From positions 9,723 to 73,722 of the forward strand of contig JBMFKS010000003.1 of assembly GCA_049972045.1 (NCBI GenBank): a DNA stretch of 64,000 nt. Direction: 5' to 3'. The translations under genes and the position numbers were made by a program. The notes under the pieces were generated by a model. The model had not been told where the DNA came from. It was given only the letters and a program-made list of their open reading frames with translations, and made no database searches. This document shows, one piece after another, positions 6,009 through 48,494 of this stretch (positions are counted from its first letter, which is position 1; each line of letters begins with the position of its first letter). Origin of the DNA: Anaerolineae bacterium (GTDB lineage: Bacteria; Chloroflexota; Anaerolineae; B4-G1; DUEL01).

Positions 6009-8348
6009 ATGGAGGCCTTTCCAGGGGCCGCTGGTCTGGAAGTGCCCGGCGTGGGGATGCGAGGCGGGCTGGGACGGACCATTCTGACCGCCTTCCTGAT
6101 ATTGGCGATTGTACCGCTCAGTGTTGTCAGTTGGTACGCCTCCACCCGTCACCGCGAGAATATCCAGGAGGAGGTGACGGGGAAACTGGTCACCATCGCC
6201 GCTCTGAAAGAGGCCCAGATTACCCGTTGGCTGGAGGAGCAAGCCGTCGCGCTGGACGACCCGGAACTGCGGGAAGCCATCTTCCGGGCGGCTGGAAGAA
6301 GCCCCGAAGAAATCCGCTCCCTCCTGACCACTCTCGCTTCCCAGAAGGGTGTTGAGGACCTGGCCCTGATTGGCCCTCAGGGTCGGGTGGAGTGGGCCGG
6401 GGATGCCTCCTGGGAGGGTGATACCGTTATCCTGCCTTCCAGCCCCGATGCCTTCGCTCTCCAGGTGTCTCCGAACCTTGCCGGACGGGAAGGGATTGTC
6501 CTGATCCGGCCGTTAAGTTCAGCCCGATGGCCCTCCATCGCGGCCCGGCTGACCGGGGAGGGCTTGATCCATATTCTGGAGGAACGGGCCGGCCTGGGCG
6601 AAACGGGAGAAGCCTACTTGGTGGATCAATGGGGGTTCGCCTGTCCACAAAATCGTCGGATCACCAGCCCGGCCATTCAGGCGGCCCTTTCCGGACAGGA
6701 CGGTCAGGGCCTGTATGAGAACTATAGGGGCACGCCCGTCATTGGCGTCTACCGGTGGCTCCCCACGCTGAGCCTGGCCCTGGTCGTGGAGCAGACGCAA
6801 GAGGAGGCCTTCGCGGGCAACGAGGCGGTGACTACCGCCGTCATTGCGGCCACCCTGGGCGTCGCCATCGCCACGGCGGCTATCGCCGCCGTGGTCACCC
6901 GCCAGATTACCCGACCGGTCGTCCGGCTGACGGAATCCGCTCTGCGGATTGCCGCCGGAGACCTCTCCCAGCGGGTGGACATCACCTCCCGGGACGAAAT
7001 TGGCATCCTGGCCCAGGTCTTCAATCAGATGGCGACGGAACTGGAGGCCCTGTACAACGACCTGGAGGCCAAAGTTGCGGAGCGAACCCGCCTTCTCCAG
7101 CAGGCCAACTACCAGATTCAGCGCCGCGCCATCCAGTTGCAGGCCAGCCTGGAGGTCGGGCAAGCGGTCACCTCCATCCTGGACCCGGACGCCTTGCTGG
7201 AGCACGTGGTGCGCGTGGTGCGGGATTGCTTTTATTACTCCCACGTCGCCGTTTACACCACGGACGAATCGGGCAATGGGTTGGTTCTTCGGGCTTCCGC
7301 AGGAGAGGCTGACCCGTTTCATGGCGCGCGTGTGACCGGCGAGTCTCTCAGCGCGGTCGGGCAAGCGTTCCGGGATGGTCGGGCGGTTCTGGAAAGCCGA
7401 CCGGTCTCCATCAGGGTGGGTCCGCCCCTCTCCTACGCCCGGGCGGAGGCGGCGCTCCCTCTCCGCCTGGGTGACCGGGTGCTGGGGGTGATGGACGTCC
7501 AGAGCACCCAGCCCGAGTCCTTTGACCAGGATGACGTCTCCGTCCTGCAGAACGTGGCCAATCAGGTCGCCATCGCCCTGGAGAACGCCCGGGCCTACGC
7601 GCTGGAGCGGGAGGCCGCCGAGCGGCTCCGGGAACTGGACCGCTCCAAGCGGCGCTTCCTGGCGAACATGTCCCACGAACTGCGCACGCCGTTGACCAAC
7701 ATTATCGGGTTTGCCCGGCTGATGCTGAAGGAGATAGACGGCCCGCTGACCGACCAGCAGCGGCATGACCTGGAAATCATCTACCACAACGGCGAGCATC
7801 TCCTGGGCCTCATCAATGACCTCCTGGACATCTCCCAGATTGAGGCCGGGATGATGGAACTGGAGTTCCGGGAAGTGGACCTGGGTGACCTGATCCGTAG
7901 CGTGATGGCCACCGCCAGCGCGCTGTTGCGGGGGAAGCCGGTTGTGATGCGGGAGATCATTGCTCCGCAATTGCCCAAGGTACGGGCCGACCCCACCCGC
8001 ATCCGGCAGGTCCTGTTGCGCATTCTGGCCAATGCGGCCAAGTTTACCGACCAGGGCACCATCACCGTCCGGGCGTGGGCAGAAAATGGGGAGGTCCGGG
8101 TCAGCGTCAGTGACACAGGTATTGGGATCCCTCCGGAGGCGCGGGAGCGCATCTTTGAGCGGTTTGAGCAGGGTGTGATGGAAAATGGCCGTCGCCCCGA
8201 TGGAACCGGCCTGGGGCTGGCGCTGAGCAAAGAGTTCGTGGAGATGCACGGCGGCCGTATTTGGGTGGAGAGCGAGGTCGGGAAGGGCTCTACCTTCACG
8301 TTCACGCTGCCTTTGCAGCCTGCCCCCTTTTCCACGAAAGGAGGCTGA
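6009..8348 (+). CDS. Sensor histidine kinase: extracytoplasmic sensor, TM, HAMP, S-helix, GAF, HisKA, HATPase
   Basis: TM segments flank a ~250-aa periplasmic domain. A HAMP domain (RLTESALRIAAGDLSQRVD...) is followed by ERTRLLQQANYQIQRRAIQLQAS, a GAF domain, the H-box [19 protein letters not shown], and N/G boxes ending [37 protein letters not shown]. The start is chosen at MEAF and could instead be the MRGG 16 codons later. Confidence 0.88.
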   Translation: MEAFPGAAGLEVPGVGMRGGLGRTILTAFLILAIVPLSVVSWYASTRHRENIQEEVTGKLVTIAALKEAQITRWLEEQAVALDDPELREAIFRAAGRSPEEIRSLLTTLASQKGVEDLALIGPQGRVEWAGDASWEGDTVILPSSPDAFALQVSPNLAGREGIVLIRPLSSARWPSIAARLTGEGLIHILEERAGLGETGEAYLVDQWGFACPQNRRITSPAIQAALSGQDGQGLYENYRGTPVIGVYRWLPTLSLALVVEQTQEEAFAGNEAVTTAVIAATLGVAIATAAIAAVVTRQITRPVVRLTESALRIAAGDLSQRVDITSRDEIGILAQVFNQMATELEALYNDLEAKVAERTRLLQQANYQIQRRAIQLQASLEVGQAVTSILDPDALLEHVVRVVRDCFYYSHVAVYTTDESGNGLVLRASAGEADPFHGARVTGESLSAVGQAFRDGRAVLESRPVSIRVGPPLSYARAEAALPLRLGDRVLGVMDVQSTQPESFDQDDVSVLQNVANQVAIALENARAYALEREAAERLRELDRSKRRFLANMSHELRTPLTNIIGFARLMLKEIDGPLTDQQRHDLEIIYHNGEHLLGLINDLLDISQIEAGMMELEFREVDLGDLIRSVMATASALLRGKPVVMREIIAPQLPKVRADPTRIRQVLLRILANAAKFTDQGTITVRAWAENGEVRVSVSDTGIGIPPEARERIFERFEQGVMENGRRPDGTGLGLALSKEFVEMHGGRIWVESEVGKGSTFTFTLPLQPAPFSTKGG

Positions 8349-8351
8349 ACG

Positions 8352-9191
8352 ATGGCTGTCGCAACCGTAGACCGGGAAACGATTCGGCGAATTCTGCGGG
8401 AAGAACTTCCCCGAATGGTGGAGGAAGACCAGGATTTTCGGTACTGGTTGACCGGGTGGATTGCAGAGACTTTCCCCAAACGCTCGGAGGTGGAGCAGGC
8501 ATTGGCGCAGGTCTTAGAGCATCTGGTCGCGCTGCGGGAGGACTTTAACCGCCAGTTCGCCCTGCAATCCCAGCGGCTGGAGGTCGTGGAGCAGCGGCTG
8601 GAGGTCGTGGAGCAGCGGCTGGAGGTCGTGGAGCAGCGGCTGGAGGTCGTGGAGCAGCGGCTGGATGCTTTTGAGCAGCGGATGGAGGAACTGCGCCAGG
8701 ATTTCAACCGCCAGATGATGCGTCTGGTGGAACGGCATGAGTCCCTGGAGCAACGGGTAAACCAAGGGTTTGCCCGGCTGGAAGCCACCGTGGGAGCGAT
8801 CGGGGCCCGCTGGGGGATGATGGCCGAGGAAGCCTTCCGTTCGGGAATGGCGGGCATCCTCCGGGACCAGTTTGGCTGGCAGGTGGAACGCCTCCTGATG
8901 ATGGATACCGAGGGCTTCGTCTTCGGACACCCTGATCAGGTGGAGATAGACATCGCCATCCACGACGGCGCCCACTGGCTGATTGAGATTCGCTCCTCCA
9001 TGAGCAAGGCCGAGATGTACACCTTTGTGCGCAAGGTGGAGTTCTATGAGCGGCTGCGGGGAGTCCAGGTGGCCCGACGGATCGTCATCTCCCCGATGAT
9101 CCACCCTCAGGCCCAGAAGGTCGCGGAGCGTCTGGGCATAGAACTGTACACCTCCGTCTACGACGTCTCGCCGGACCTGCGGGGGGGATGA
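8352..9191 (+). CDS. Coiled-coil protein with C-terminal Hjc-like PD-(D/E)XK (restriction-endonuclease-fold) domain; paralog of 16271..17215
   Basis: It starts 3 nt after the kinase stop with an upstream AAGGAGG. There is a heptad repeat LEVVEQR x4. The C-terminus reads IGARWGMMAEEAFRSG...FGHPDQVEIDIAIHDGAHWLIEIRSSMSKAEMYTFVRKVEFYER, an E...D...E-x-K spacing like Hjc and related nucleases. The family name is not certain. Confidence 0.6.
   Translation: MAVATVDRETIRRILREELPRMVEEDQDFRYWLTGWIAETFPKRSEVEQALAQVLEHLVALREDFNRQFALQSQRLEVVEQRLEVVEQRLEVVEQRLEVVEQRLDAFEQRMEELRQDFNRQMMRLVERHESLEQRVNQGFARLEATVGAIGARWGMMAEEAFRSGMAGILRDQFGWQVERLLMMDTEGFVFGHPDQVEIDIAIHDGAHWLIEIRSSMSKAEMYTFVRKVEFYERLRGVQVARRIVISPMIHPQAQKVAERLGIELYTSVYDVSPDLRGG
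8571..8663 (+). repeat. In-frame 21-bp tandem repeat (cagcggctggaggtcgtggag x ~4.4) encoding LEVVEQR heptads
   Basis: The direct repeat is visible in the sequence at 8571-8663. Confidence 0.85.
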
Positions 9192-9223
9192 GGGGTCCCG
9201 GGAAGAGGGGTGAGGCCAGCGAA

Positions 9224-10051
9224 ATGACCGCGGTAGTGGCGATCGCGAACCATAAAGGCGGCGTCGCTAAGACGACAACCTGCCTATCCCTGGGCGGTGC
9301 CCTGGCGGAGCAGGGGCTTCAGGTCTTGGTGGTAGACCTGGACCCTCAGGCGCATCTGACCCTCTCTCTGGGGCTCCGGCCCGAGGAACTCCGTCATACC
9401 CTTGCGGATGTGCTCCTGGAGCAGCAATCTGTGGTTGCGGTCAGCCGGGAGACATCGGTGGCGGGCCTGGACCTGGTGCCGGCCAGCGGCGAACTGGTGG
9501 TCCTGGACAAAGCCCTCTATGGCCGGCCCGGTTATGAGTACCGGTTGCGGCAGGCCCTGGGGCGGATGTCCGTCGCCTACGACTTTGTCCTGATGGACTG
9601 CCCTCCTTCCTTCGGCACCCTGACCCTCAACGCGCTCACCGCTGCCGATATGCTCATCATCCCGATACAGTGTGAGTACTATGCCTGGCGTTCCCTCCGC
9701 CCGATGCTGGAACTGGTGACGGTGGTCCGGCAGAAAACCAACCCTGCCCTCCGCTACCGTCTCCTGGTCACAATGTACGATGCGCGCAGCCGCATTCACC
9801 GGCTGATCTTGGAGCAAATTCACCGCTTTTTCCCCCAGGCCACTTTTCGGACGATTGTCCAGGTAGATACTCGCTTGCGGGAAAGCCCGGTCTATGGCCT
9901 GCCGGTGACCCAGTATGCCCCTCGCACGCGGGCCGCCGAGCAGTATCGGGCTGTTGCCCAGGAGATGATGGTCTGTTTCCCCCCCGCGCCGACGGTCATT
10001 ACGGGTCCACAAAGGGCGTGGCCTGTAGAGCATTCTGTCGCAAGCGGGTAG
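9224..10051 (+). CDS. ParA/MinD-family P-loop ATPase (orphan; no parB in window)
   Basis: It contains the deviant Walker A motif VAIANHKGGVAKTTT, plus VVDLDPQAHLT and LMDCPPSFGTLTLNAL. An ORF beginning earlier, at 9188, overlaps the upstream stop. Start M13 is preferred because it has an RBS. Confidence 0.85.
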   Translation: MTAVVAIANHKGGVAKTTTCLSLGGALAEQGLQVLVVDLDPQAHLTLSLGLRPEELRHTLADVLLEQQSVVAVSRETSVAGLDLVPASGELVVLDKALYGRPGYEYRLRQALGRMSVAYDFVLMDCPPSFGTLTLNALTAADMLIIPIQCEYYAWRSLRPMLELVTVVRQKTNPALRYRLLVTMYDARSRIHRLILEQIHRFFPQATFRTIVQVDTRLRESPVYGLPVTQYAPRTRAAEQYRAVAQEMMVCFPPAPTVITGPQRAWPVEHSVASG

Positions 10052-10076
10052 ATGGATAAAGCGAGGAACAGAGACG

Positions 10077-12293
10077 ATGGAGTCATTCAAGCGGTCACTG
10101 GAAGAACTGTTTTCGGATTTCACCCCACCCGCTCCGGAGGGTATCTCCCCTGCTCCCCAGGAGGAAAAGCCACCGGCTCCCGCCCCGGCCCCGCGCCAGC
10201 CCACAGAGGCTGTGCTTTCCGGGAAGGAAATCGCCAGGCAGGTTGGACCGGGAGTCTCGCTGATAGGGGCCCATGTCCGCAATATTCGCGCGCAACTCTT
10301 GGGGAATACGTTGATCATTCTGGTTGTGATTCTCTGGACCGCTTTCCTGATCGGCAGCGCGATGGTGCGGTTGAACCGGGCGGTTGCGGCGGTGGGGGAG
10401 GAGACCACGCGGGCCAATACGGCGCTGGCGGCAGGAAAGGCGGCGGCGGAACTCTTCGTCGCTATCGGACAGGGAACGCTGGCCCAGGACCCAGAAGTGC
10501 TGATCCGGGGCATCACCGAAGCGCGCGAGCACCTCCTGCAGACGCAGGACCGCCTTCTGGAGAGCGTTGCCCCGATTCCGGTGGAAGACCCCCTGTGGTC
10601 GGAATTGATCCGTCTACGGGCCGCTATCTCCCAGATGGATTCCTGGACCACTTATTTCATAGAACAGGCCCGCCGGTACAACTGGGAAAACATTCGGGCT
10701 TCTCAATTGTATCTGGTTCCCTATTATCTGAACGAAATCACCGCAGCAACGGTAGGGGTGGAAAAACTGACCCAGGAGCGGCTGGCCCTTGCCAACCAGG
10801 AGGCAGCCGCAGCGCGGGAAATACTGCGCAACATCACGATATCCTGGGGCATTGTTCTGCTTCTGGTGGTCATAGGGGTAAACGTTGCTTTCCTGCGCAG
10901 TATCGCCGACCCGCTGGAACGGCTGGCCGAAGCATCCGCTCGCCTGGCGGCCGGCCGTCTGGAGACGCGCGTCGCCATAGACCGGGCCGATGAGTTCGGC
11001 CGCCTGGCTCAGGCCTTCAATGATATGGCTGAGCATTTGCAGACCCTTTACAACGAATTGGAAGAGCGGGTGCAGGAGCGGACCCGCGCCCTTCAGGAAG
11101 CCAACTATGCCCTCCAGCGACGGGCCATCCAGTTGGAGGCCAGCGCCGAAGTGAGCCGATCCATCATCTCTATTTTCAACGTGGACGAGCTGCTGTGGCG
11201 GGCCGTCAACCTGATTCGGGACCGCTTCGGCTTCTACCACGCTGGCATTTTCCTGATGGACGAGACGGGGGAATGGGCCGTGCTGCGGGAGGCCACGGGC
11301 GAGGCAGGTGCCCAGATGAAGGCCCAGGGCCACCGCCTCCCGGTGGGGGAGACCAGCATGGTCGGCTGGACGGCCCTCCACCGCCGCCCCCGCATCGCCC
11401 TGGACGTGGGCCAGGACGCGGTCCACTTTGCCAACCCTCTCCTGCCCTACACCCGTTCGGAGATGACCCTCCCTCTGATGGTCGGTGGTCGTCTCCTGGG
11501 GGTGCTGGACGTTCAGTCCACCGAAGAGGCCGCCTTTGATGAAGACGACATTCGGGCTCTCCAAAGCATGGCCGACCAGTTGGCCATTGCCATAGAGAAC
11601 GCCCGACGGCTTTCCGAAGAAGCCTTGCTGCTGGAAGCGACCAGCCCCATCTACCGCTTTAGCCGCCGGCTGGGCAGCGCGGCCACCGTGGAGGACATCG
11701 CGGAGGTCATCATTGGAACCGTCTCCGAGACCGAGGCGGATGGCTGCGTGGTGGTGGAGTTTGAGTCCTCCGACGGGGTACCGGAAGCCTTGCTCTACCG
11801 GGGGGTCTGGCGGCGGGACCGGGAGCCCACCTTCCGGCCCGGGATGCGGATGGAGGCATCCGAGACCCCTCTGCCCACTCTCATGCTGAGTCGGATGTGG
11901 GTCAGTGAGGATGCCCAGCGAGATTCCCAGATGTCGGATAAGGCCCGGGAACTCTTCCGCGCTACCGGTGTCGGGGCTGTCGTCAACATCCCGCTGCGGG
12001 TGGGGGAGCGGTCTGTGGGTCAGGTCGTCATCCTGCGGTCCACACCGGGCCCCTTCTCTCCGGCGTCGCTGCGACTCTATGAGGTCATCGGCGACCAGGC
12101 GGCCGTCGCGCTGGAGCGGGCCCGCCTGCTGGAAAGGATGCGGCAGCGAGCGGAGCAGGAGGAGGCTCTGCGGAGCATCGCCGACCAGATTACGGCCACT
12201 TTTGACCTGCGAACGGCCCTGCAGACGACGCTACAGCAACTGACCCAGGTGCTGGACGCCCGCGGTGGCTATGCGGAACTGGGAACCAGGTAG
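10077..12293 (+). CDS. Membrane sensor protein: TM-periplasmic domain-TM-HAMP-S-helix-GAF-GAF, no output domain
   Basis: There are two hydrophobic helices. A HAMP domain (LAEASARLAAGRLETRVAIDRADEFGRLAQAFNDMAEHL) is followed by ERTRALQEANYALQRRAIQLEASAE and two GAF-like domains. No HisKA/HATPase, GGDEF, EAL or HTH domain is present. Confidence 0.8.
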   Translation: MESFKRSLEELFSDFTPPAPEGISPAPQEEKPPAPAPAPRQPTEAVLSGKEIARQVGPGVSLIGAHVRNIRAQLLGNTLIILVVILWTAFLIGSAMVRLNRAVAAVGEETTRANTALAAGKAAAELFVAIGQGTLAQDPEVLIRGITEAREHLLQTQDRLLESVAPIPVEDPLWSELIRLRAAISQMDSWTTYFIEQARRYNWENIRASQLYLVPYYLNEITAATVGVEKLTQERLALANQEAAAAREILRNITISWGIVLLLVVIGVNVAFLRSIADPLERLAEASARLAAGRLETRVAIDRADEFGRLAQAFNDMAEHLQTLYNELEERVQERTRALQEANYALQRRAIQLEASAEVSRSIISIFNVDELLWRAVNLIRDRFGFYHAGIFLMDETGEWAVLREATGEAGAQMKAQGHRLPVGETSMVGWTALHRRPRIALDVGQDAVHFANPLLPYTRSEMTLPLMVGGRLLGVLDVQSTEEAAFDEDDIRALQSMADQLAIAIENARRLSEEALLLEATSPIYRFSRRLGSAATVEDIAEVIIGTVSETEADGCVVVEFESSDGVPEALLYRGVWRRDREPTFRPGMRMEASETPLPTLMLSRMWVSEDAQRDSQMSDKARELFRATGVGAVVNIPLRVGERSVGQVVILRSTPGPFSPASLRLYEVIGDQAAVALERARLLERMRQRAEQEEALRSIADQITATFDLRTALQTTLQQLTQVLDARGGYAELGTR

Positions 12294-12327
12294 CACGGGC
12301 CTCAGCCTGTGCAAGGAGGCAGCTCAG

Positions 12328-13977
12328 ATGCCCGATACCCGACAGCCCAGTGAGATCACTGAATTTCAGGACTGGCAGGCTCGCGCGCTGAACGTTCTCC
12401 TGTTCGCGCTGACTCTCACCGCGACCCCAGTGATCATTTTCGTCGGAGTGGAAGCGATTCGCGCTCCGGAACGGGGTGCCGCCGCGCCGCTATTTGGTGC
12501 CTTGTACGTTTTTCTGGTCCTTCTGACCGTGCTCCGTCGGCTTCCGCAACGGATCCGGCTGATCGGTTTTCTGATCGTGGGGTATGCGGTAGCGGTGACC
12601 GCCTTTCTGCGGGGGGGGCTGGTCGGGGATGGACGCCTTTTCCTGATGATTCTCCCCCTGATGGCCCTGGCCCTCTCGGACCTGCGAATGGGCCTGGCTG
12701 CCGGCATTTGCAGTCTCCTGATTCATCTGGCTTTTGTGCTGTTTGCCCACCTGGGATGGCTCTCCCAGTGGGTCGTGGTGAAGGAGAACCCGCTGGCCCT
12801 CGGCGACTGGCTCACGGCCACGGCCGTTTTCCTGATGCTCCTGGCGGGCCTGTTCGTCATTGTGGGGCTCTCCAACCGCTCGCTGATCCGGGCCCTGGAG
12901 GCGAGCCGCCAGTTGGCGCAGGAACGGGCCGCGGCCTATAACCTGCTGGAGGGGCAGACCCGGGAACTGGAGCGGCGGACTCGCTGGCTGGAGGCCGCGA
13001 CCCATGCCGCTCGGGAGGCCGCTACGCTGGAAGAGCCGGATGTCCTGCTCTCCCGGGTGGCCGAGGAACTGGCCCGACGGATGGACTTGGAGGAGGTGAT
13101 TTTCTACACTGCGGGTCCGGAAGGCGAATTGGTTGCCCGGGCGATGGCGGAAAGTCGGCAGGTTGTGCCGGTGGATGTCATGCCCTCCGGCGCGTCGCCG
13201 CTGGCTCGGGAGGCCCTCCAGAGCGGCGCCGTCCGGTCGGGGTGGTGGGGTGGCCTGTACGAGGTAGCCTCCCCGCTGCGGCTTCAGGAGCGGACGCTAG
13301 GGGTGATGGTGGTTCGTTTCCCCACCGAAATCCGGATGGACGGGGCAGAGGCCGTCGTCTTGGGGTTAATCGCGAACCAACTGGCGGTGGCCCTGGAGAA
13401 CGCCCGCCTCTTCTCCGAAACCCGGGCCAGCCTGCGGGAACTGGAAGCCCTCTATCGCCGATACACGACCCAGGCCTGGGAACGGTTCGTCCGGGAGGCT
13501 CCGGAGAGTGTCCGCCTGTGGACGGGGCCGGAGGAGGTGCCGGAGGGGGTCTGGCAGGGCCTCTTTGAGCAGGCCCGCGCCTCCGGCTCGGTCGCGGTGG
13601 GCGAGGAGGATTCCCGGTACCTGCTGGCCGTGCCGGTGAAACTGCGGGGCGTGGCGATTGGTGTGCTGGGATTCCATCGGGAGCAGGCGGCGGGCCGGTG
13701 GCGTCCGGAGGAGATTGCCGCGGCGGAGACGGTGGCGGAACGGCTCGCGCTGGCGGTGGAGAACGCCCGTTTGCTGGAAGAGGCTCATCGCCGGGCCGCC
13801 CGGGAGCATCTGGTCGCCGAAATCACCGCCCGGCTGCGGGCCTCCCTGGACCCGGATACCGTCCTCAAGACCACCGTCCGGGAACTGGGGCGGGCGCTGC
13901 GGGCCCGCTGGGCGGCGGTGGAGATCACCGGACCGCTGCAGGAGGGGACGGGCCGCTCGCAGGAGGTAGGGGGATGA
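12328..13977 (+). CDS. Polytopic membrane N-domain fused to GAF domains (output-less sensor)
   Basis: A strong RBS (caaggagg) lies 8 nt before the ATG at 12328, and the longer ORF begins at 12265. There are 5-6 TM helices and then GAF-like regions (LGVMVVRFP..., [30 protein letters not shown]). The frame differs from the 10077 gene, and the two genes overlap by up to 28 nt. Confidence 0.75.
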   Translation: MPDTRQPSEITEFQDWQARALNVLLFALTLTATPVIIFVGVEAIRAPERGAAAPLFGALYVFLVLLTVLRRLPQRIRLIGFLIVGYAVAVTAFLRGGLVGDGRLFLMILPLMALALSDLRMGLAAGICSLLIHLAFVLFAHLGWLSQWVVVKENPLALGDWLTATAVFLMLLAGLFVIVGLSNRSLIRALEASRQLAQERAAAYNLLEGQTRELERRTRWLEAATHAAREAATLEEPDVLLSRVAEELARRMDLEEVIFYTAGPEGELVARAMAESRQVVPVDVMPSGASPLAREALQSGAVRSGWWGGLYEVASPLRLQERTLGVMVVRFPTEIRMDGAEAVVLGLIANQLAVALENARLFSETRASLRELEALYRRYTTQAWERFVREAPESVRLWTGPEEVPEGVWQGLFEQARASGSVAVGEEDSRYLLAVPVKLRGVAIGVLGFHREQAAGRWRPEEIAAAETVAERLALAVENARLLEEAHRRAAREHLVAEITARLRASLDPDTVLKTTVRELGRALRARWAAVEITGPLQEGTGRSQEVGG

Positions 13978-16289
13978 ACATCCAGATGAGCGCATTCTGG
14001 ATTGACCTGATTGTCTACGGGGCAGTGGCGGTGATCTCCGCTGTGCAGATTCTCGTTGTCCTGGGAGCGGGTATCCGGCGGCGGGTGAACCTGCTCTTTG
14101 CTTGGATGATGCTGATGATTGCCCTGTGGACGGGTACCGCTGTGGTGCTCCGGGTTTCCCTCTGGCGGGTCTGGCAGGCAGGGCCGGTTCAGCAGTTCTG
14201 GATGGAAATCTCTTCGCTGGCATTCCTCCTGATCGCCCCGCTGATGCTGGCCTTCAGTGCGGCCTATATAGAGACAAAGGCCCGCTGGCCCTACTGGCTC
14301 AGCCTTCTGGGGCTGGCGGGAATCGGCCTTTTTGCCGTTCCTCTTTTCCGCCATCAGGTAGTCTATAATGTCCACATCACCCCTTCCGGAGTAATATCCT
14401 GGGACCGTACGCCGCTCGCTTTCATCCTCTCTCTGCCCCAGACGGTTGGTCCGATTCTGAGCCTGGTTTTGCTGTGGCAGGAGCGGCGAATCCGGGATTA
14501 CTCCCTGATGGCGGCTTTCACTCTGATGCTGGTCTCTTCTCTGCTTTTTTCCGTCATTCAGGTGAACTTTCCATCCCTCAGCCTGACGACCCTGGTCGTG
14601 GTGGTGCTTCTGGCCTACGCGGTGCTGAACCGCCAACTCTTTCGCCCCCTGCGGGAGTTGACCCGGGAGTTGGAGAAGCGGGTGGAGGAGCGGACCCGGG
14701 AACTGGCGGAAACCTCCCTCCGCCTGCAGGAGGCCAACCGCGATCTGGCCCGCCGGACAGCCCAATTGGAAGCCGCTTCCGCAGTGGCCCGCCGTGCGGC
14801 CGAAATCCACGCTGTGGATGCTCTGCTGAACGAGACCGTTCGCCTCATCTCCGACCGCTTCGGCTTCTACCACGCGGGCATCTTCCTGATAGACGAAGCC
14901 CGGGAGTACGTCGTCCTGCGGGCCGCCTCGTCCGAGGGCGGGCAGCGGATGCTGGCCCGGGGCCACCGGCTTGCCGTCGGCGAGGAAGGGATCGTCGGCT
15001 ATGTGGCGGGGACGGGAAAGCCGCGGATCGCGCTGGACGTGGGCGAGGACGCGGTTTTCTTCAGCAACCCTGACCTCCCCCACACCCGCTCGGAGATGGC
15101 GTTGCCGCTGAAGGTGGGGGAGCAGGTCATCGGTGTGCTGGACGTCCAGTCGGTGGAGCCCTCCGCATTCACCGATGAGGATGTGACGGTCCTGCAGACG
15201 ATGGCCGATCAGATTGCCCTGGCCATTGAGAATGCCCGTCTGCTGGCGGAAGTCCAGGACCGCCTGCGGGAGGTGGAGACCCTGAGCCGGGAGTATGTCC
15301 GCCGGGAGTGGGAGCAGATGGTCTCCGAGCGGCCCGGCTGGGGGTACATCTACGACGGCGTAGAGGTGAGGCCCCGGGAGCGGGTTTCTCCTCCCGAAGG
15401 GGTTTCGCCGGGTATCACGGTCCCCTTGCAACTGGCAACAGGCGAGACCATCGGGCAAGTGGCGCTGGCTCTCCCCCATCGGCCTCCCACCGACGAGGAC
15501 GTGGCCCTGGCTCAGGCAGTGGCCCAGCAGGCCGCGCTGGCGTTGGAAAGCGCCCGCCTCTTCCAGGAGACCCGGCGGACGCTGGAGGAGATGGAATCCC
15601 TGTTCCGGGCCAGTGAGGCGATCAACACGGCCAGCACCCCCGATGACGTCCTGCGTGCATTTGTGGACCACGTGGTCCCGCCCCAGATTGACCGCTGTGT
15701 ATTGGCGCTCTTGGACCCCGAGAGTCCTTCAGAGGAGATGGCGGTGGATGCGGTGGCGGCCTGGGATCGGGGGAAGGAACGATCGCCTTCCCTGGGCCGC
15801 CGCTGGAGCATAGCTCAGATTCCCTTCATCGCCCGACGGTCTACGGAGCCGGTGGTCATATCGGACGTGGCGACATATCCAGACGTGGACGAGGTATCCC
15901 GATATGTGTTCATGAACGTCCTGGGGGTTCGGGCGGTCCTGGGAATCCCGCTGGTGGCCGGCGGGCGGCTCCTGGGCTGGCTGATGGTGGAGTCCCTCAC
16001 CAGACCCTACGAATTCAGCGAGCGGGAAGTCCGCCTCTACCGGACGCTGGCCGACCAGGCCGCGCTGGCGCTGGAGCGAATGCGCCTCTTTGAGGAGACC
16101 CGGCGCCGGGCGGAATGGGAGCGCATTCGCGCCGAGGTCGCCGCCCGCGTGCGCGCCTCTACCGACATAGAGACCATCCTGCGCACCGCCGTTCGGGAAA
16201 TGGGGCGGGCCTTCCGGGCGGCGGAGGGGGTCATCCAGTTGCACGGAGGGGACGGCCGGAAGGAGGGGGAATGGAGCAAGACGTCGTGA
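13974..16289 (+). CDS. 7-8 TM N-domain + coiled coil + 3-4 GAF domains (output-less sensor)
   Basis: The ATG at 13974 overlaps the upstream stop as ATGA. The N-terminal ~330 aa are hydrophobic. The rest contains LRELTRELEKRVEERTRELAETSLRLQEANRDLARRTAQLEAA and the conserved GAF cassette FGFYHAGIFLIDEAREYVVLRAASSEGG... Confidence 0.8.
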   Translation: MNIQMSAFWIDLIVYGAVAVISAVQILVVLGAGIRRRVNLLFAWMMLMIALWTGTAVVLRVSLWRVWQAGPVQQFWMEISSLAFLLIAPLMLAFSAAYIETKARWPYWLSLLGLAGIGLFAVPLFRHQVVYNVHITPSGVISWDRTPLAFILSLPQTVGPILSLVLLWQERRIRDYSLMAAFTLMLVSSLLFSVIQVNFPSLSLTTLVVVVLLAYAVLNRQLFRPLRELTRELEKRVEERTRELAETSLRLQEANRDLARRTAQLEAASAVARRAAEIHAVDALLNETVRLISDRFGFYHAGIFLIDEAREYVVLRAASSEGGQRMLARGHRLAVGEEGIVGYVAGTGKPRIALDVGEDAVFFSNPDLPHTRSEMALPLKVGEQVIGVLDVQSVEPSAFTDEDVTVLQTMADQIALAIENARLLAEVQDRLREVETLSREYVRREWEQMVSERPGWGYIYDGVEVRPRERVSPPEGVSPGITVPLQLATGETIGQVALALPHRPPTDEDVALAQAVAQQAALALESARLFQETRRTLEEMESLFRASEAINTASTPDDVLRAFVDHVVPPQIDRCVLALLDPESPSEEMAVDAVAAWDRGKERSPSLGRRWSIAQIPFIARRSTEPVVISDVATYPDVDEVSRYVFMNVLGVRAVLGIPLVAGGRLLGWLMVESLTRPYEFSEREVRLYRTLADQAALALERMRLFEETRRRAEWERIRAEVAARVRASTDIETILRTAVREMGRAFRAAEGVIQLHGGDGRKEGEWSKTS

Positions 16290-17215
16290 TCCTCATCCGC
16301 CAGAAATTGCCGGAACTGATGCGCACCGACCCGGAGATTCGGGAGTGGATTCTGGAACTGGGGCGGGAGTATTTCGCCGACCGGGCCCAGACCGACTCCC
16401 GCTTTGAGCAGATGCTGGAAGAACTACGCCGGGACCGGGAGGAATGGAGCCGCCGCTGGGAAGAGGAGAAAGCCGAGCGGGAGCGGCGGCTGGCAGAGGA
16501 GCGCGCGGAATCGGACCGCCGCTGGCGGAGGTGGCTGGCCCAATATGAGCGTCGCTGGCAACGGCAACTGGAAGAATGGAACCGCCGCTGGGAGGAAGAG
16601 AAAGCCGAAAGGCGCCGCCAGTGGGAGGAGGGAATGGCCGAATGGCGCCGCCAGTGGGAGGAGGAGAAGGCCGAATGGCGTCGCCAGTGGGAGGAGGGAA
16701 TGGCCGAATGGCGCCGCCAGTGGGAGGAGGGAATGGCCGAATGGCGCCGCCAGTGGGAGGAGAACCGGCAGGAGCATCAGGAGTTTCGGGCCTCCTTTGA
16801 CCGCCTGCTCCAGCGGGTAGATAGCAAAATCTCGGCCATCGGCGCTCGGTGGGGGATCTTCGCCGAATCGGCCTTCCGCGAGGGCATCCAGGCCATCCTG
16901 GAAGAGAGTTTCGGGGTGCAGGTCCTCCGATACCAGGCCTGGGACGAGCAGGGAGAGGTCTTTGACCAGCCGGACCAGGTGGAACTGGACCTCATCATCC
17001 GGGATGGCACCCTGATCATCTGCGAGATCAAATCCTCCATGAGTCGCTCGGATATGTACACCTTTGCCCGGAAAGTCCGTTTCTACGAACGGCACGAGGG
17101 TCGCCGGGCGAACCGGCGGATGGTGATTTCCCCGATGGTGGAGGAACGGGCCCTTCAGGTGGCCCATCGGTTGGGGATAGAGGTCTATACCCATGCCGAC
17201 GAGGTGCCGTTATAA
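16271..17215 (+). CDS. Coiled-coil protein with C-terminal Hjc-like PD-(D/E)XK domain; paralog of 8352..9191
   Basis: The ATG at 16271 follows GGAGG and lies 19 nt inside the upstream gene. A W/E/R-rich repeat reads RRQWEEGMAEW x ~4. The C-terminus, IGARWGIFAESAFREG...FDQPDQVELDLIIRDGTLIICEIKSSMSRSDMYTFARKVRFYER, is colinear with the 8352 protein. Confidence 0.6.
   Translation: MEQDVVILIRQKLPELMRTDPEIREWILELGREYFADRAQTDSRFEQMLEELRRDREEWSRRWEEEKAERERRLAEERAESDRRWRRWLAQYERRWQRQLEEWNRRWEEEKAERRRQWEEGMAEWRRQWEEEKAEWRRQWEEGMAEWRRQWEEGMAEWRRQWEENRQEHQEFRASFDRLLQRVDSKISAIGARWGIFAESAFREGIQAILEESFGVQVLRYQAWDEQGEVFDQPDQVELDLIIRDGTLIICEIKSSMSRSDMYTFARKVRFYERHEGRRANRRMVISPMVEERALQVAHRLGIEVYTHADEVPL
16608..16765 (+). 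repeat. In-frame 33-bp tandem repeat (~4.5 copies) encoding RRQWEE[G/E][M/K]AEW
   Basis: Direct repeats of cgccgccagtgggaggagggaatggccgaatgg are visible. Confidence 0.85.
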
Positions 17216-17266
17216 GCGAGACAACTGCGTGCGGTTGTCCGCCGCAAGAGGCGCAGGAGCACGATC

Positions 17267-19168: not shown

Positions 19169-19774
19169 ATGAGGGTGACGACGTATCCGGAGGTCAAAAC
19201 CCCGGAGCAGATTCTCTACGAGTGGTTTGCCGAGCGGGTCTGGGAGGAGGACCTTTATCTGGAACTGGCGAACCGGGGGAACGTCTATGTGGAACTGGAC
19301 GACGGGAGGATCGTGTTTCCGATGATGCCGACCGTGCTGCACCAGATGGTCGTCCTGAACCTGGCCACCGCCCTGCGGGCGTACGCGCGCTCGCTTCCCG
19401 CACCCGGCCGGGTGTTGATCGCTCCGACGCCGATCCGTCTCTGGCCCCTGAAGATTCGGGAGCCCGATGTGGTGTTCTATAGGGCCGAACATCTGGACCG
19501 GGTGGGCGAGCAGGTGAGCGGGGTGCCCGATTTCGTCGCCGAGGTCCTTTCGCCGTCCACCCTGGCGCTGGATACCGGGCAGAAGATGGTGGAATATGCC
19601 CTGGCGGGCATCCCCGAGTACTGGCTGGTGGACCCGGACCGCCGGACCGTTGCCGTCTATGTCCTGGAAGGGACGGGTTACCGTCTGGCCGGAGAATACG
19701 GTGTCGGTCAGCGGGTAGCGGCGCAGACTCTGCCCGGCTTTTCGCTGGATGTGGATGAACTCTGGATGCCGTAA
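19169..19774 (+). CDS. Uma2-family (DUF820) restriction-endonuclease-fold protein
   Basis: GVPDFVAEVLSPSTLALDTGQKMVEYALAGIPEYWLVDPDRRTVAVY is the Uma2 signature. It starts 15 nt after the GAF-gene stop. Confidence 0.85.
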   Translation: MRVTTYPEVKTPEQILYEWFAERVWEEDLYLELANRGNVYVELDDGRIVFPMMPTVLHQMVVLNLATALRAYARSLPAPGRVLIAPTPIRLWPLKIREPDVVFYRAEHLDRVGEQVSGVPDFVAEVLSPSTLALDTGQKMVEYALAGIPEYWLVDPDRRTVAVYVLEGTGYRLAGEYGVGQRVAAQTLPGFSLDVDELWMP

Positions 19775-34235: not shown

Positions 34236-34252
34236 GCAAAGCGGCCCCCTAT

Positions 34253-34289
34253 GTGCCAGGCACTTCCAGAAGTGCCTGGCACTTTTTTA
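34253..34289. terminator. Bidirectional rho-independent terminator between convergent genes
   Basis: A perfect 30-nt palindrome gtgccaggcacttccagaagtgcctggcac is followed by tttttta. It lies between the kinase stop (34235) and the minus-strand gene stop (34287). Confidence 0.65.
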
Positions 34290-34925
34290 TTCCGCCTCCA
34301 TCAGCGCACGCAGCGCATAGGTCACCCGCCGGGGCCGGGGAGTGAGGAGCCCCAGGGACTCCCACTCCTGGGCCAGTCGCTGCAGGCGGCGCAGGGAGAC
34401 CTGCCCCCGAAACGCCTCCCGCAGGCGAACCAGGTCAAACCGCCCGTCCAGGTGCTCCAGCGTGTACCGGACCAGTTCTCGCTCCAGCGGACTCAGGGTC
34501 GGGAAGGAGGCCGGCGGGCTGACCTGGGGGGCGATGGCGGATGCCTGGAGCATCTGCAGCCATTGGGCGGCCTCCGCAATCAGGTGGCCCATATTGAAGT
34601 AGAGCCGGTTCGCCCACTCGGCTACCCCCTGCAGGTCGTGAATGTACGGCGGGGAGGTGAGCAGAGTGCCGTAAGCCGCGAAGGGGAAGTCTGCCCGGTT
34701 GAATATTCCGGCCCGACCGTTGCTGGCCTGGGCGCGGATCACATCCCACCGCTCCTCGGTGACGGTGAAATCCAGCCAGAAGGTGACCAGAATGCCGCCC
34801 GCCAGTCGCCAGTACCAGGCCGCTCCCAGCCGGCCCACGTAACCGGGCACCCGCCGGGCGATTTCCTCAAAGATAACGTCCGCCAGCCGCAGGGCCTGAA
34901 AGGAAGGGTAGAATAGTGGGGACAT
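34287..34925 (-). CDS. Hypothetical protein (C-terminal region looks like a winged-helix-type domain)
   Basis: This 212-aa ORF has coding-like codon usage and no recognisable family. Its start abuts the heptamer array. Confidence 0.45.
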   Translation of the reverse strand: MSPLFYPSFQALRLADVIFEEIARRVPGYVGRLGAAWYWRLAGGILVTFWLDFTVTEERWDVIRAQASNGRAGIFNRADFPFAAYGTLLTSPPYIHDLQGVAEWANRLYFNMGHLIAEAAQWLQMLQASAIAPQVSPPASFPTLSPLERELVRYTLEHLDGRFDLVRLREAFRGQVSLRRLQRLAQEWESLGLLTPRPRRVTYALRALMEAE

Positions 34926-34933
34926 GGTTCACC

Positions 34934-35079
34934 GTCGCAGGTCGCAGGTCGCAGGTCGCAGGGCGCAGGTCGCAGGTCGCAGGTCGCAGGGCGCAGGTCG
35001 CAGGGCGCAAGTCGCAGGTCGCAGGTCGCAAGCAATCCGTCGTCTGTGGTCTGTGGTCTGTGGTCTGTCGTCCGTCGTC
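34934..35079. repeat. Heptanucleotide tandem arrays: (GTCGCAG/GGCGCAG) x ~14 then (GTCTGTG/GTCCGTC) x ~5
   Basis: It reads gtcgcaggtcgcaggtcgcagggcgcagg...gtctgtggtctgtggtctgtggtctgtcgtccgtcgtc. The unit length of 7 is non-coding periodicity. Confidence 0.9.
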
Positions 35080-36800
35080 TACCTCTGGAACTCCCGCGCC
35101 AGTTGAGCGGTGCTGATGTGGATCATCGTCGGGCGGCCGTGGGGGCAGGTGCGCGGGCTGGCACACCCCTCCAGCGCCCGCAGCAGTTCCTCCATCTCCT
35201 CCCGGGCCAGCACCTGCCCGGCTTTCATCGCCCCTTGTTTGCACACCTGCCGGATAATCGCTCGCTCTATCTCCTCCTCCGCTCCTCCGCTTTCCCGCCC
35301 CCCTGCTCCCGCGCCCTCCTCCGCCAGCCCCCGGGCGACCTCCATCAGCACCTCCCGGGGGTGCGCTGCGGTGAGCACGGCCGGCAGCGCCCGCACCAGA
35401 AAAGTGTTCCCCCCGAACGGTTCCACCTCCACCCCCAGGCGGCGCAGGGTCTCCTGGTGGGCCTCCACCAGTCCCGCCCACTCGGGCGGCAGGTCCACCG
35501 CCGCCGGCTCCAGCAGCGGCTGGGCCGGAATGCCGGTTGCCCGCTGGGCCATCAGTCGCTCGTAGAGCACCCGCTCGTGGGCTGCGTGCTGGTCTATCAG
35601 GTAGAGACCGTCCGGCCCTTCGGCGATGATATAGGTTGCTGCCACCTGCCCGACCACCCGGAGGGGCGGCAGTCCGCCGGGAAAGACCGGCGGCGAAATG
35701 ACCGGCATAGGGACGGGCCGGAACGGCTCGCTGGTCGGCCGCTCCGGGGGCCGGCCCTCCGGCGCGTGGGGGATAAGGGCCGGTCTGGGGATGACCCGCA
35801 TGGCCGGGATGCCGCCTTCCTCTGTTACTGCCCGCCGCACCGCCCGCTGCACGGCCCGGAAGGCCCCGTCCCCGTCCCGGAAGCGCACTTCCGCCTTGGC
35901 GGGATGGACGTTGACGTCTACGTCCTCCGGCGGGAGGGTGATGCTCACCACCGCCAGCGGATACCGTCCGGCGGGGAGGAGCGTGTGGTAGGCCTGGATG
36001 ATGGCGTAGGTCAGGCGCGCGTCCTGGACCCAGCGCCCGTTGACAAAAAGCGTGATTTCCCCCCGGTCGGCCCGGTGGAGGTGCGGCGGGCTGACGAACC
36101 CCGTCACCCGAATCGCCTCATCCTCCTCCGGCAGGACCTCCACCAGCGCACTTCCCACCTCCACGCCGTAGACCGCCACCAGCACATCCCGCATCTGCCC
36201 GGTGCCGGGCGACCGGAAGACCTCCCGCCCGTCGTGGGCCAGGGTGAAGCGCCGGTCAGGGTAGGCCATCGCGTAGCGGGTGACCCAGGCGTCTATGTGA
36301 TGGCGCTCGGTGGCCGAGGAGCGGAGGAACTTGCGGCGCGCGGGGACATTGTAGAAAATGTCTTCCACGGTGACCGTCGTCCCCGGCGGGCGGCCGACCG
36401 AGCGGCGGCTCACCACCTCCCCTCCCTCCAGCCGGATGAGGGTGCCGGTCTCCTCGCCCGCCGCGCGCGTGACGCAGGTCACCCGGCTGACGGCGGCGAT
36501 AGAGGCCAGCGCCTCGCCCCGGAAACCCAGGGTCCGGACCCGCGACAGGTCCTCCGCCGAGGCCAGTTTGCTGGTGGCGTGACGCCGGAAGGCCAGTTCC
36601 ACCTCCGCCGCGGGGATGCCGCAGCCGTCGTCGGCGACGCGCATCATGCGCTTTCCACCGTCGGCGACCTCCACGCGGATCTCCCGCGCGCCCGCGTCTA
36701 TGCTGTTCTCCACCAGTTCCTTGACCACCGACGCGGGCCGGCCCACCACCTCACCGGCGGCAATCTGGGCGATGATTTCGGGGGGAAGAACCCGGATCAT
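35079..36800 (-). CDS. mutL: DNA mismatch repair protein MutL
   Basis: The N-terminus is MIRVLPPEIIAQIAAGEVVGRPASVVKELVENSIDAGA, and the C-terminal motif is CPHGRPTMIHIS. The listed longer ORF (to 36842) only reads through the upstream heptamer array. Confidence 0.9.
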   Translation of the reverse strand: MIRVLPPEIIAQIAAGEVVGRPASVVKELVENSIDAGAREIRVEVADGGKRMMRVADDGCGIPAAEVELAFRRHATSKLASAEDLSRVRTLGFRGEALASIAAVSRVTCVTRAAGEETGTLIRLEGGEVVSRRSVGRPPGTTVTVEDIFYNVPARRKFLRSSATERHHIDAWVTRYAMAYPDRRFTLAHDGREVFRSPGTGQMRDVLVAVYGVEVGSALVEVLPEEDEAIRVTGFVSPPHLHRADRGEITLFVNGRWVQDARLTYAIIQAYHTLLPAGRYPLAVVSITLPPEDVDVNVHPAKAEVRFRDGDGAFRAVQRAVRRAVTEEGGIPAMRVIPRPALIPHAPEGRPPERPTSEPFRPVPMPVISPPVFPGGLPPLRVVGQVAATYIIAEGPDGLYLIDQHAAHERVLYERLMAQRATGIPAQPLLEPAAVDLPPEWAGLVEAHQETLRRLGVEVEPFGGNTFLVRALPAVLTAAHPREVLMEVARGLAEEGAGAGGRESGGAEEEIERAIIRQVCKQGAMKAGQVLAREEMEELLRALEGCASPRTCPHGRPTMIHISTAQLAREFQR

Positions 36801-36805
36801 GGTAC

Positions 36806-36864
36806 AGGTCGCAGGTCGCAAGTCGCAGGGCGCAGGGCGCAAGTCGCAGGGCGCAGGGCGCAGG
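36806..36864. repeat. Heptanucleotide tandem array (GTCGCAG/GGCGCAG x ~8), same orientation as the 34934 array
   Basis: The array ggtcgcaggtcgcaagtcgcagggcgcagggcgcaagtcgcagggcgcagggcgcagg sits immediately upstream of the mutL start. Confidence 0.9.
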
Positions 36865-36892
36865 AAAGGTGAACGCAGATAAACGCAAAAGG

Positions 36893-37110
36893 AATGTAGC
36901 GCAGGCTGTTAGCCTGCAAATACAGGCCCCCTCGCGGGGCCTTGGGCCGAGGGCCCCCTCGGCCACGCCGCGAGCGGCTCGCCGCGTGGCAGGCTGAGCC
37001 CCTCGGGGCGTGGCCCTCGGGGCGCAGCGGAGTGGCGCCGAAAGCGGCACTTCACTTTGTTCCGTGCCGCACTACAAGCAGCAGGCCTGGCGGCCTGCGC
37101 TCCGTTGTAA
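36893..37110. repeat. Family B GC-rich palindromic element cluster (second large copy)
   Basis: The ~90 bp from gtagcgcaggctgttagcctgca through ggctgagcccctcggggcg are near-identical to 28030-28110 and 27940-28040 in rearranged order. Confidence 0.8.
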
Positions 37111-37169
37111 CCAATTTACGGGCGGCGTATTCCCTCACCACGGGAATTCCCAGAGCGCCCAGATTTTTC

Positions 37170-37790: not shown

Positions 37791-37865
37791 GTCGCGTCTG
37801 CATTCATGGAGGGCAGAAGAGTCGCGGGGTTTGCGGCGGCGGCCGGAGGCCGCCGCCGCAAACCC

Positions 37866-38738: not shown

Positions 38739-38807
38739 TCCGTGCTCTGGCCTCCTGAACGGAAAACGGCCGGGTGGTGCCCCTGGCCGTTCCTGGGAAG
38801 GTCTGAA

Positions 38808-38883
38808 GGTGCCCCTGGCGCGACTCGAACGCGCGGCCAAGAACTTAGGAGGTTCCTGCTCTATCCTTCTGAGCTACAGGGGC
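38808..38883 (-). tRNA. tRNA-Arg (anticodon CCT)
   Basis: The minus-strand read GCCCCTG TA GCTC AGAAGGATA GAGC A GGAAC CTCCTAA GTTCT TGGCC GCGCG TTCGAGT CGCGC CAGGGGC A CC was folded by hand. It gives a 7-bp acceptor stem, 4-bp D stem, 5-bp anticodon stem with loop CU-CCU-AA, and a 5-bp T stem with TTCGAGT loop. Confidence 0.85.
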
Positions 38884-38921
38884 AGGCACTGAGAATTATA
38901 ACGCAAGTTCGGCGAGATAGC

Positions 38922-38961
38922 AAAAAAGGGGCTGGCGACGGCTTTTCCGCCGCCATGCCCC
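38922..38961 (-). terminator. Probable rho-independent terminator after pgk
   Basis: On the minus strand an imperfect GC hairpin (ggggcatggcggcgg aaaag ccgtcgccagcccc) is followed by TTTTTT. It sits 10 nt after the pgk stop. Confidence 0.45.
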
Positions 38962-38971
38962 CAGTTTTCCT

Positions 38972-47186: not shown

Positions 47187-47188
47187 AC

Positions 47189-48471: not shown

Positions 48472-48494
48472 TGCGACCCCGGTGGAGTACCGGA

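Follow-up and report, generated by a model that had tools for sequence, protein, structure and literature searches.

Paired COG5493 genes with repeat-built stalks and a PD-(D/E)XK domain in a signalling array of a hot-spring Anaerolineae genome

A stretch of 64,000 nt from the metagenome-assembled genome (MAG) of a hot-spring Anaerolineae bacterium (contig JBMFKS010000003.1 of GCA_049972045.1, positions 9,723 to 73,722; hereafter the window, ~65% G+C) carries two genes, A and B (Table 1), whose products are diverged paralogs of COG5493, the family composed of the Pfam domains DUF3782 (PF12644) and PDDEXK_10 (PF07788, formerly DUF1626). Both open reading frames (ORFs) had been singled out in an initial annotation made from the sequence alone, and both are present with identical boundaries in another public MAG record (contig JBMFNK010000039 of GCA_049970195.1); NCBI MAG records annotate a protein identical to A as 'PD-(D/E)XK nuclease family protein'. 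The architecture proposed in that annotation, namely an N-terminal helix, a divergent repetitive helical stalk and a shared C-terminal domain, proved to be correct. The family, its predicted fold and this architecture were already known from Pfam, COG and the literature, and the observations added here are a phase-preserving ladder of stalk repeats, the pairing of an Arg-type with a Lys-type paralog, a Trp/Arg/Glu-rich hendecad stalk, and occupied and empty alleles with a discordant phylogeny. They are descriptive, and they make an old family experimentally approachable while revealing no new mechanism.

Table 1. Features of genes A and B in the window (positions are those of the window)
Feature	Position	Strand	Basis
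Left junction of the A insert: histidine kinase tail extension PAPFSTKGG*, holding the A Shine-Dalgarno AAAGGAGG	8316..8351	+	
Gene A, DUF3782 + PDDEXK_10, 279 aa, 'Arg-type' (motif III E-I-R)	8352..9191	+	ORF, Pfam, NCBI annotation
N-terminal two-helix module of A, motif (E)ELPxxLxxxPxxR	8373..8471	+	AlphaFold secondary structure, family consensus
Stalk of A, single continuous predicted helix, residues 44-154 (~111)	8481..8813	+	AlphaFold
21-bp in-frame tandem array in A	8571..8688	+	Tandem Repeats Finder (TRF), 5.6 copies, score 194
GARWG junction of A, residues 151-155, predicted hinge	8802..8816	+	Alignment, predicted local distance difference test (pLDDT)
PD-(D/E)XK domain of A, residues 157-267	8820..9152	+	Pfam PF07788, AlphaFold topology, column conservation
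Predicted catalytic codons of A: E159; D200; E212; R214	8826-8828; 8949-8951; 8985-8987; 8991-8993	+	
Gene B, DUF3782 + PDDEXK_10, 314 aa, 'Lys-type' (motif III E-I-K)	16271..17215	+	MAG gene call, Pfam
Stalk of B, residues 45-187, phased 11-residue units (AEWRRQWEEGM and relatives)	16403..16831	+	Register display
33-bp in-frame tandem array in B	16574..16762	+	TRF, 5.7 copies, 89% matches, score 290
GARWG junction of B, residues 191-195	16841..16855	+	Conservation, codons
PD-(D/E)XK domain of B, residues 197-307	16859..17191	+	
Predicted catalytic codons of B: E199; D240; E252; K254	16865-16867; 16988-16990; 17024-17026; 17030-17032	+	

Family membership and active-site motifs

Both proteins matched the two Pfam profiles in adjacent positions, DUF3782 first, and far above the gathering cut-offs of 24.4 and 21.2 bits: PF12644 scored 80.4 bits in A (E 1.1e-22) and 82.7 bits in B (E 2e-23), and PF07788, which spans residues 196-264 of A, scored 81.0 bits (E 6.2e-23) and 86.8 bits (E 9.5e-25). 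The guess of DUF3782 made in the initial annotation was thus right, as was the restriction-endonuclease-like (PD-(D/E)XK) fold. Domain content and order, a helical N-terminal region followed by the nuclease domain, are those of COG5493, with the difference that A carries E-x-R instead of E-x-K. The paralogy of the two genes was borne out by BLASTP, which aligned their C-terminal parts without gaps (73 of 156 identities, 47%; E 1e-45) and returned a weak match between their N-terminal helices (13 of 45 identities, E 4e-4). No further paralogs were found by tblastn within the window, and a third match to the regular expression 'GARWG' was discarded as a chance pentapeptide.

The alignment of the C-terminal domain comprised 239 sequences, that is, 237 database homologs together with A and B. 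In B numbering, E199, D240, E252, R193, G195, F202-R203, D225, G228, P234 and E238 were conserved in at least 238 of them, and S255-S256 in 236. With a nuclease profile matched and the putative catalytic positions conserved, neither of the two outcomes under which the fold assignment was to be given up (no match to a nuclease profile, or catalytic positions that vary across homologs) was what we found. The E...D...E-x-K signature read in the initial annotation held for B, in which E199, D240 and E252-I-K254 correspond to motifs I, II and III, but not entirely for A, whose motif III has an Arg that is invariant in its clade, E-I-R being present in all 13 close A orthologs. In the alignment, 194 of the 239 sequences have Lys and 41 have Arg at this position, while a motif scan gave the Arg variant in 55 of 273; Thr variants have been described in archaea (PMC1913061).

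The top Foldseek match was EndoMS. NucS/EndoMS is a mismatch-specific endonuclease of archaea and actinobacteria, whose C-terminal nuclease domain is accompanied by an N-terminal beta-barrel that serves in DNA binding and dimerisation, whereas A and B have no Pfam DUF91 match, lack the beta-barrel, the N-terminus and stalk of the model being all-helical, and are only ~15% identical to it, which places them outside NucS/EndoMS. The archaeal restriction-endonuclease-like protein AF1548 (PDB 1y88) is 16% identical and has no helical stalk. By sequence no solved homolog was found, since the family profile run against all PDB chains gave only coiled-coil noise, the best nuclease being Cas4 SSO0001 (4ic1) with E 0.55. 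Matches to NCBIfam and PHROGs (SMC, Rad50, hemolysin XhlA and others) were rejected as compositional matches of a low-complexity coiled coil, and a Pfam RmuC match (E 0.045) was set aside as it falls in the stalk, outside the nuclease domain.

DUF1626 was placed in the PD-(D/E)XK superfamily in 2007, in a study that noted an N-terminal coiled coil and distant relationships with DUF91/NucS, restriction endonucleases and Hjc/Hje (PMC1913061). A census of 2012 listed its function as unknown and reported a patchy distribution, including Chloroflexi, that suggested horizontal transfer (PMC3424549), and in archaeal genomes the PDDEXK_10 domain was located near HEPN/MNT modules (PMC3710099). The initial annotation had likewise seen a resemblance to archaeal Hjc and related folds, which, taken as an identity, would make A and B Holliday-junction resolvases of the Hjc type with contingency-like repeats. 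Such an identity is very improbable: there was no Hjc Pfam match, 57 solved chains fitted better than Hjc, and, instead of a compact single-domain homodimer, both proteins have an N-terminal module and a stalk of ~110-145 residues, foreign to Hjc, ahead of the nuclease domain. In addition, the genes are dispensable and multi-copy, and their repeat units, being multiples of 3 bp inside the ORF, give no frameshift switch. From the conservation of fold and motifs we infer nuclease chemistry for A and B, and their activity, substrate, oligomeric state and biological role are treated below as predictions.

Stalks built of in-frame repeats and their length variation

In the full-length AlphaFold model of A, helices at residues 8-25 and 27-40 are followed by the single unbroken helix of the stalk, a low-confidence break and the nuclease domain. 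The pLDDT is 90-98 over residues 51-130 and falls below 50 at residues 148-154, coinciding with GARWG, whose two Gly and Arg are present in at least 238 of the 239 aligned sequences, the Trp in 237 and the Ala in 223. The stalk of B contains 25% Glu, 23% Arg and 11% Trp, its self-identity peaks at lag 11 and its hydrophobic period is 3.65. About 4.5 units had at first been counted in it; the 11-residue phase spans essentially the whole stalk, with about 12-13 units. The perfection at the DNA level claimed for these repeats holds for A, in which the first four units (8571-8654), encoding QRLEVVE heptads, are identical base for base and are followed by two degenerate copies. In B the repeats are near-perfect only, four consecutive units differing at 0-3 of 33 bases from the unit at 16706, and the array of Table 1 is the most recently homogenised part of a weaker register that extends back to ~16442.

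Repetitive stalks are widespread in the family. Among 249 members the stalks measure 57-231 residues, with hydrophobic periods between 3.5 and 3.67, and 156 of the 249 have internal repeats with lags of 7, 11, 14, 18, 21, 22 or 25, which are heptad/hendecad combinations. The usual unit of A orthologs is the 11-residue DFNQRMEDLRR with three hydrophobic positions, and in the A gene of the window a heptad was expanded instead. Trp/Arg/Glu-rich units are conserved across phyla: B and its orthologs have 11-residue units of the type AEW(N/R)RRWEEE(R/K), and in other phyla the shorter (N/Q)(R/K)(R/K)W(E/D)E(Q/N) is found. Lys-type stalks (P0181, P0193, P0184, P0162; P and L numbers denote family proteins and related contigs or loci) repeat this shorter unit at intervals of 7 or 11 residues, with examples in Thermodesulfovibrio, Desulfosoma and Thioploca. 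The crenarchaeal DUF3782 endonucleases, represented by Tcar0761 (PDB 5APZ), share the same Pfam stalk family and likewise set a coiled-coil stalk on a PD-(D/E)XK endonuclease. Their nonads form beta-layers in trimeric coiled coils, and bacterial members lack 'nonads or related periodicities' (PMC4786415); the stalks of A and B are, in contrast, heptad/hendecad arrays, that of B being rich in Glu, Arg and Trp with few core hydrophobics.

Variation of stalk length between strains, which the initial annotation had suspected, was confirmed when copy number was checked across orthologs. All length differences among the 13 A orthologs lie within the stalk segment; for example, variant P0244 is A with three instead of four QRLEVVE units and is otherwise identical, and ortholog P0010 (78% identical to A) has a single RLEVVEQ unit. 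Similarly, P0004 (285 aa, 2 contigs) and P0266 (296 aa, 12 contigs) are one 11-aa unit apart, and P0265, also of 285 aa, was found on 29 contigs. The B orthologs form a ladder of 286, 297, 308, 319, 330, 341, 352 and 374 aa, that is, 11-residue steps from 9 to 17 units, with identical N- and C-terminal parts and with expansions to either side of two conserved units at the centre; the B of the window and P0121 (99% identical) differ solely in the unit variants at two positions. Some short-read collapse is possible in these series of A and B variants, and the recurrence of several variants in independent assemblies argues against random assembly error. In contigs L002 and L003 an identical A protein is accompanied by B proteins of 341 and 319 aa. 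An A+B heteromer formed through matched stalks is therefore unlikely, since the lengths of the two vary independently (A/B pairs of 285/319, 285/341, 267/297, 267/330 and 279/314 aa).

The analogy with contingency loci drawn in the initial annotation stands in one respect, as copy number is polymorphic among close strains, and fails in another, as such loci switch on and off through a shift of frame or promoter spacing, whereas the units here lie inside the ORFs and all variants observed keep the frame, each step adding or removing 7 or 11 aa. As 21 and 33 bp are both divisible by three, slippage alters the length of the stalk and cannot toggle the gene on or off. In-frame repeat stalks that vary between strains by whole phase-preserving units are also a feature of streptococcal M proteins and trimeric autotransporter adhesins. 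Those proteins are secreted to the cell surface and evolve under immune selection, whereas A and B match no membrane-associated Pfam family and bear a nuclease head. Neither the repeat ladder nor the insert-like behaviour described below appears in the computational papers that our literature searches retrieved.

Long and repetitive stalks could also belong to catalytically dead structural proteins, cytoskeleton-like or filament-forming, that merely retain a nuclease-fold head. Most of the family is found in Chloroflexota, Cyanobacteria, Desulfobacterota, Thioploca/Beggiatoa-like bacteria and KSB3, many of these being filamentous groups, and the change from Lys to Arg in motif III of the A clade would fit a loss of activity. 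Nevertheless, the three acidic residues, the basic one and the PDQ, SS and RK positions hardly vary (at least 238 of 239 sequences for the acidic residues), pointing to a maintained active site, and the genes are dispensable in close relatives, which makes a purely structural role improbable.

Occupied and empty alleles in a signalling array

A and B belong to a co-directional signalling array of ~30 kb (5061-34235, plus strand). Its order from the 5′ end is two response regulators (RR), a HAMP-GAF histidine kinase (HK), A, a ParA-like ATPase, HAMP-GAF-GAF, MASE11-GAF, GAF-GAF and B, followed by HAMP-GAF, Uma2, a FAD oxidoreductase and more GAF proteins, up to a 2011-aa hybrid kinase. A starts 3 nt past the kinase stop. 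The true start of the ParA-like gene is at 9224, the longest-ORF start at 9188 not being real, and A and the ParA-like gene therefore do not overlap. Scans for promoters and terminators around A and B were no richer than shuffled controls, and a hairpin after B was no more stable than shuffles (z -0.06). This hairpin (GACAACTGC...GTTGTC, 17219-17240) is present also at the empty site of contig L090 and is thus not part of a cassette. The B-site spacers of relatives (L094:15370-15520, L090:16345-16720) contain palindromes resembling repetitive extragenic palindromes (GCAGGATTTATCCTGC repeats) and G/C-rich inverted repeats. Many array proteins are of HAMP/GAF/MASE11 type without output domains, one of 1373 aa having six GAF domains and the 2011-aa hybrid kinase five GAF and two receiver domains.

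Related loci were retrieved with the ParA-like gene as anchor. Both A and B are absent from L090, L097, L098 and L099, which retain RR-RR-HK-ParA-GAF with clean junctions, and both are present in L091-L096, L002 and L007; no remnants of A or B were detectable at the empty sites. In L090 the kinase ends in ...TLPLQS*, with the ParA start ~40 nt on, and the HK of L097 likewise ends after ...TLPLQ(S). Identity to the window is 93% for ParA and 91% for HK in both L090 and L097, 78-81% in L098 and 50-68% in L099. In a neighbour-joining tree of RR1, RR2 and HK, L090 and L097 nest within the clade that has both genes, ~3% from L094 and L002, so that their lack of A and B represents a recent loss or an allelic replacement. 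The identity of L090 and L094 falls from 95-97% on the left of the A site to 83-88% in the segment that separates the two sites, and rises to 90% past B, which suggests one recombination tract bounded by A and B in this pair.

A and its flanks have discordant histories. When the window is compared with L005, the C-terminal domain of A has a protein identity of 87% and a 4-fold-site identity of 67%, against 44-59% and 33-48% (near saturation) for the flanking RR and HK. Within the close clade the opposite applies, 4-fold-site identity being ~58% for A against 72-75% for HK and ParA. The N-terminal module of A is moreover a mosaic, with 82% identity in L094 and 42-43% in L005 and L007, the value in L007 being 43% although its flanks are ~90% identical.

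It could be supposed that A and B are integral to the HAMP/GAF two-component system, for example as output effectors or as scaffolds that dock their stalks on sensor helices. The RR-RR-HK-A-ParA-...-GAF/GAF-B-HAMP/GAF order is common to at least eight related contigs, the Shine-Dalgarno of A lies within the HK tail, the first 19 nt of B overlap the end of the upstream GAF-GAF gene (stop codon 16287-16289), and an A-type gene follows a HAMP-GAF histidine kinase also in L005, despite a kinase identity of ~41-44%. These links are set against the fact that close relatives keep the whole array without A and B. Furthermore, in a neighbourhood survey of 80 loci from GTDB species representatives (top 80 hits), HAMP/GAF-type neighbours occurred across phyla at only five loci, among them L005 and L007 of this same lineage. 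In Thermoflexus the Arg-type gene P0066 has ATP-synthase genes on one side and a DUF2298 gene on the other, which also disposes of a histidine-kinase link specific to the Arg type, and stalk length changes in A independently of B, and in both independently of the flanks. A dedicated signalling component is accordingly unlikely.

Distribution of the family and a probable conflict role

Clustered at 50% identity, the family members among 1.84 billion representatives fall into 767 clusters, and the 80 surveyed loci belong to Chloroflexota, Cyanobacteria, Desulfobacterota, Nitrospirota, Thioploca/Beggiatoa-like bacteria and KSB3, several genomes having 2-3 copies among the top 80 hits alone. No conserved partner gene was found, the largest neighbour clusters reaching 5-8 of the 80 loci; Uma2 was the most recurrent neighbour, at 8 of about 80 loci, and others were ABC transporters and sugar-nucleotide enzymes. 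The genes are often wedged into unrelated operons with gaps of -4 to +19 nt, for example between a MocA oxidoreductase and a UDP-glucose dehydrogenase.

Regarding links to defence, the PADLOC model PDLC01085 (C3a181) matched A with E 6.7e-17 over profile positions 3-226 of 226, and B with E 6.7e-14. C3a181 was described as a type III CRISPR accessory candidate with Tpen_1359 as representative and three occurrences (Shah et al. 2018, PMC6546367). Its 'Diadenylate cyclase' label is a tentative tag of that paper, and was rejected for A and B, since no cyclase was matched in Pfam or in the fold search. No type III cas cassette was found beside A and B, the Pfam-matched neighbours being signalling genes, the ParA-like gene, Uma2 and the oxidoreductase (a few distal ORFs of the window had no Pfam match), and the 64-kb window contains neither recognisable cas genes nor a CRISPR-like array, so that the C3a181 match is a thin and weak defence-island hint. 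The Uma2 gene of the window (19169-19774, plus strand; PF05685, DUF820), 16 nt after the HAMP-GAF gene, encodes a putative PD-(D/E)XK endonuclease that matches the PADLOC defence candidate PDC-S03 (E 6e-27), and it is missing at that position in all related contigs. Like A and B, Uma2 is a multi-copy, variably present PD-(D/E)XK family within the same array; it belongs to another Pfam family and has no stalk.

Taken together, the explanation that we consider best, and somewhat better than even, is that A and B are stand-alone stalked PD-(D/E)XK endonucleases on repeat-array stalks, carried as accessory operon inserts with a probable role in genome conflict. Each protein would consist of a two-helix N-terminal module, a long heptad/hendecad helical stalk, a flexible GARWG hinge and a C-terminal PD-(D/E)XK head; the stalks might self-associate or serve as rigid single-helix spacers, in either case keeping the nuclease head or heads at a fixed distance from the N-terminal module. 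The head would cut nucleic acid, most likely DNA, through Mg2+-dependent chemistry. The stalk DNA may gain or lose whole units (21 bp for 7 aa, 33 bp for 11 aa) by slippage or unequal recombination, and gain or loss in whole units keeps the helical phase while stalk length shifts between strains. The genes would be dispensable, recombinationally exchanged inserts that use the transcription of the operon, rather than core signalling parts. The patchy multi-copy distribution, presence and absence with discordant history, the association with Uma2 and the weak C3a181 match together indicate that their biological role is probably one in genome conflict, defence-like or selfish, rather than housekeeping.

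Several observations weigh against this explanation. The Arg that replaces Lys in motif III of A could mean weakened or lost catalysis, and our literature searches returned computational papers only, with no biochemically characterised member of COG5493. Many Lys-type stalks have about one hydrophobic residue (Trp) per 7-11 residues, unlike a canonical a/d coiled coil, which makes the oligomerisation step uncertain; such a stalk may be an ER/K-type single alpha-helix or a binding surface. The Shine-Dalgarno of A inside the HK tail and the overlapping start of B could reflect a local functional link. The whole array is recombinationally dynamic, L094 for instance lacking the MASE11-GAF gene, and presence and absence are therefore not specific to the nuclease genes. 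The synonymous divergence of B tracks that of its flanks (63-68% in both), so that B looks vertically inherited in the clade. Finally, searches of IMG/VR (2.9 M viral contigs), INPHARED (50,697 phage records) and PLSDB (72,556 plasmids) gave no match to the family, which is thus not typical mobile-element cargo.

Some of these points bear equally on a related alternative, in which A and B are free-standing selfish genes resembling homing endonucleases, which would cut the empty intergenic site of a related chromosome, be copied with some of their flanks during repair and spread in this way into unrelated operons. PD-(D/E)XK homing endonucleases exist, I-Ssp6803I being one. Occupied and empty alleles of the same site, with clean junctions, are found among relatives 3-10% diverged, A is a mosaic gene discordant with its flanks, and the identity pattern of L090 and L094 resembles a co-conversion or replacement tract between A and B; the insertion of family genes into tightly spaced unrelated operons and their multi-copy, patchy distribution (PMC3424549) would fit as well. 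Conversely, the insert positions are stable over ~10% divergence, B is concordant with its flanks, the family is absent from the phage and plasmid collections, and a gene of the array that encodes no nuclease is also variably present. In addition, the long repetitive stalk is foreign to known homing endonucleases, and the breakpoint pattern comes from one contig pair. We consider homing unlikely.

The favoured explanation, accessory stalked endonucleases with a probable role in conflict, concerns a family that since 2007 has been described by computational prediction alone, and the locus provides several natural handles on it. The stalk-length series (from 9 to 17 hendecads for B, and three or four heptads in tandem for A) is of a kind rare among intracellular enzymes, Lys-type and Arg-type active sites are paired in one operon, and the occupied and empty alleles at the same operon sites offer a handle on homing or defence. 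Even if A and B were ordinary accessory nucleases, they would counsel caution, as nuclease-fold genes in signalling operons need not belong to the pathway. A more far-reaching proposal, for which we see only a slim chance, is that COG5493 represents an unrecognised class of chromosomal, operon-hitchhiking nuclease cassettes, homing-like or defensive, with the stalk as an adjustable molecular ruler. If so, the ruler would set the distance from recognition module to head, gain and loss of repeats would rapidly diversify where or what the enzyme cuts, and the Trp/Arg/Glu-rich units would be functional, for example as an ER/K-type single alpha-helix or a nucleic-acid-binding rod, and not a passive spacer.

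Elsewhere in the window, no Pfam match (E <= 1e-5) was obtained for ORFs of 221, 608, 435 and 588 aa within 34251-40028 on the plus strand, nor for a 740-aa ORF at 46909-49131 on the minus strand. The 608-aa ORF (35046-36872) is flanked at both ends by tandem arrays of a GGTCGCA-like heptanucleotide (34920-35051 and 36794-36869), which resemble the short tandemly repeated (STRR) heptamers of cyanobacteria. Another repeat was found at 60149-60331, consisting of three tandem 61-nt copies (92-100% identical), each with an internal palindrome GACACGAAG...CTTCGTGTC.

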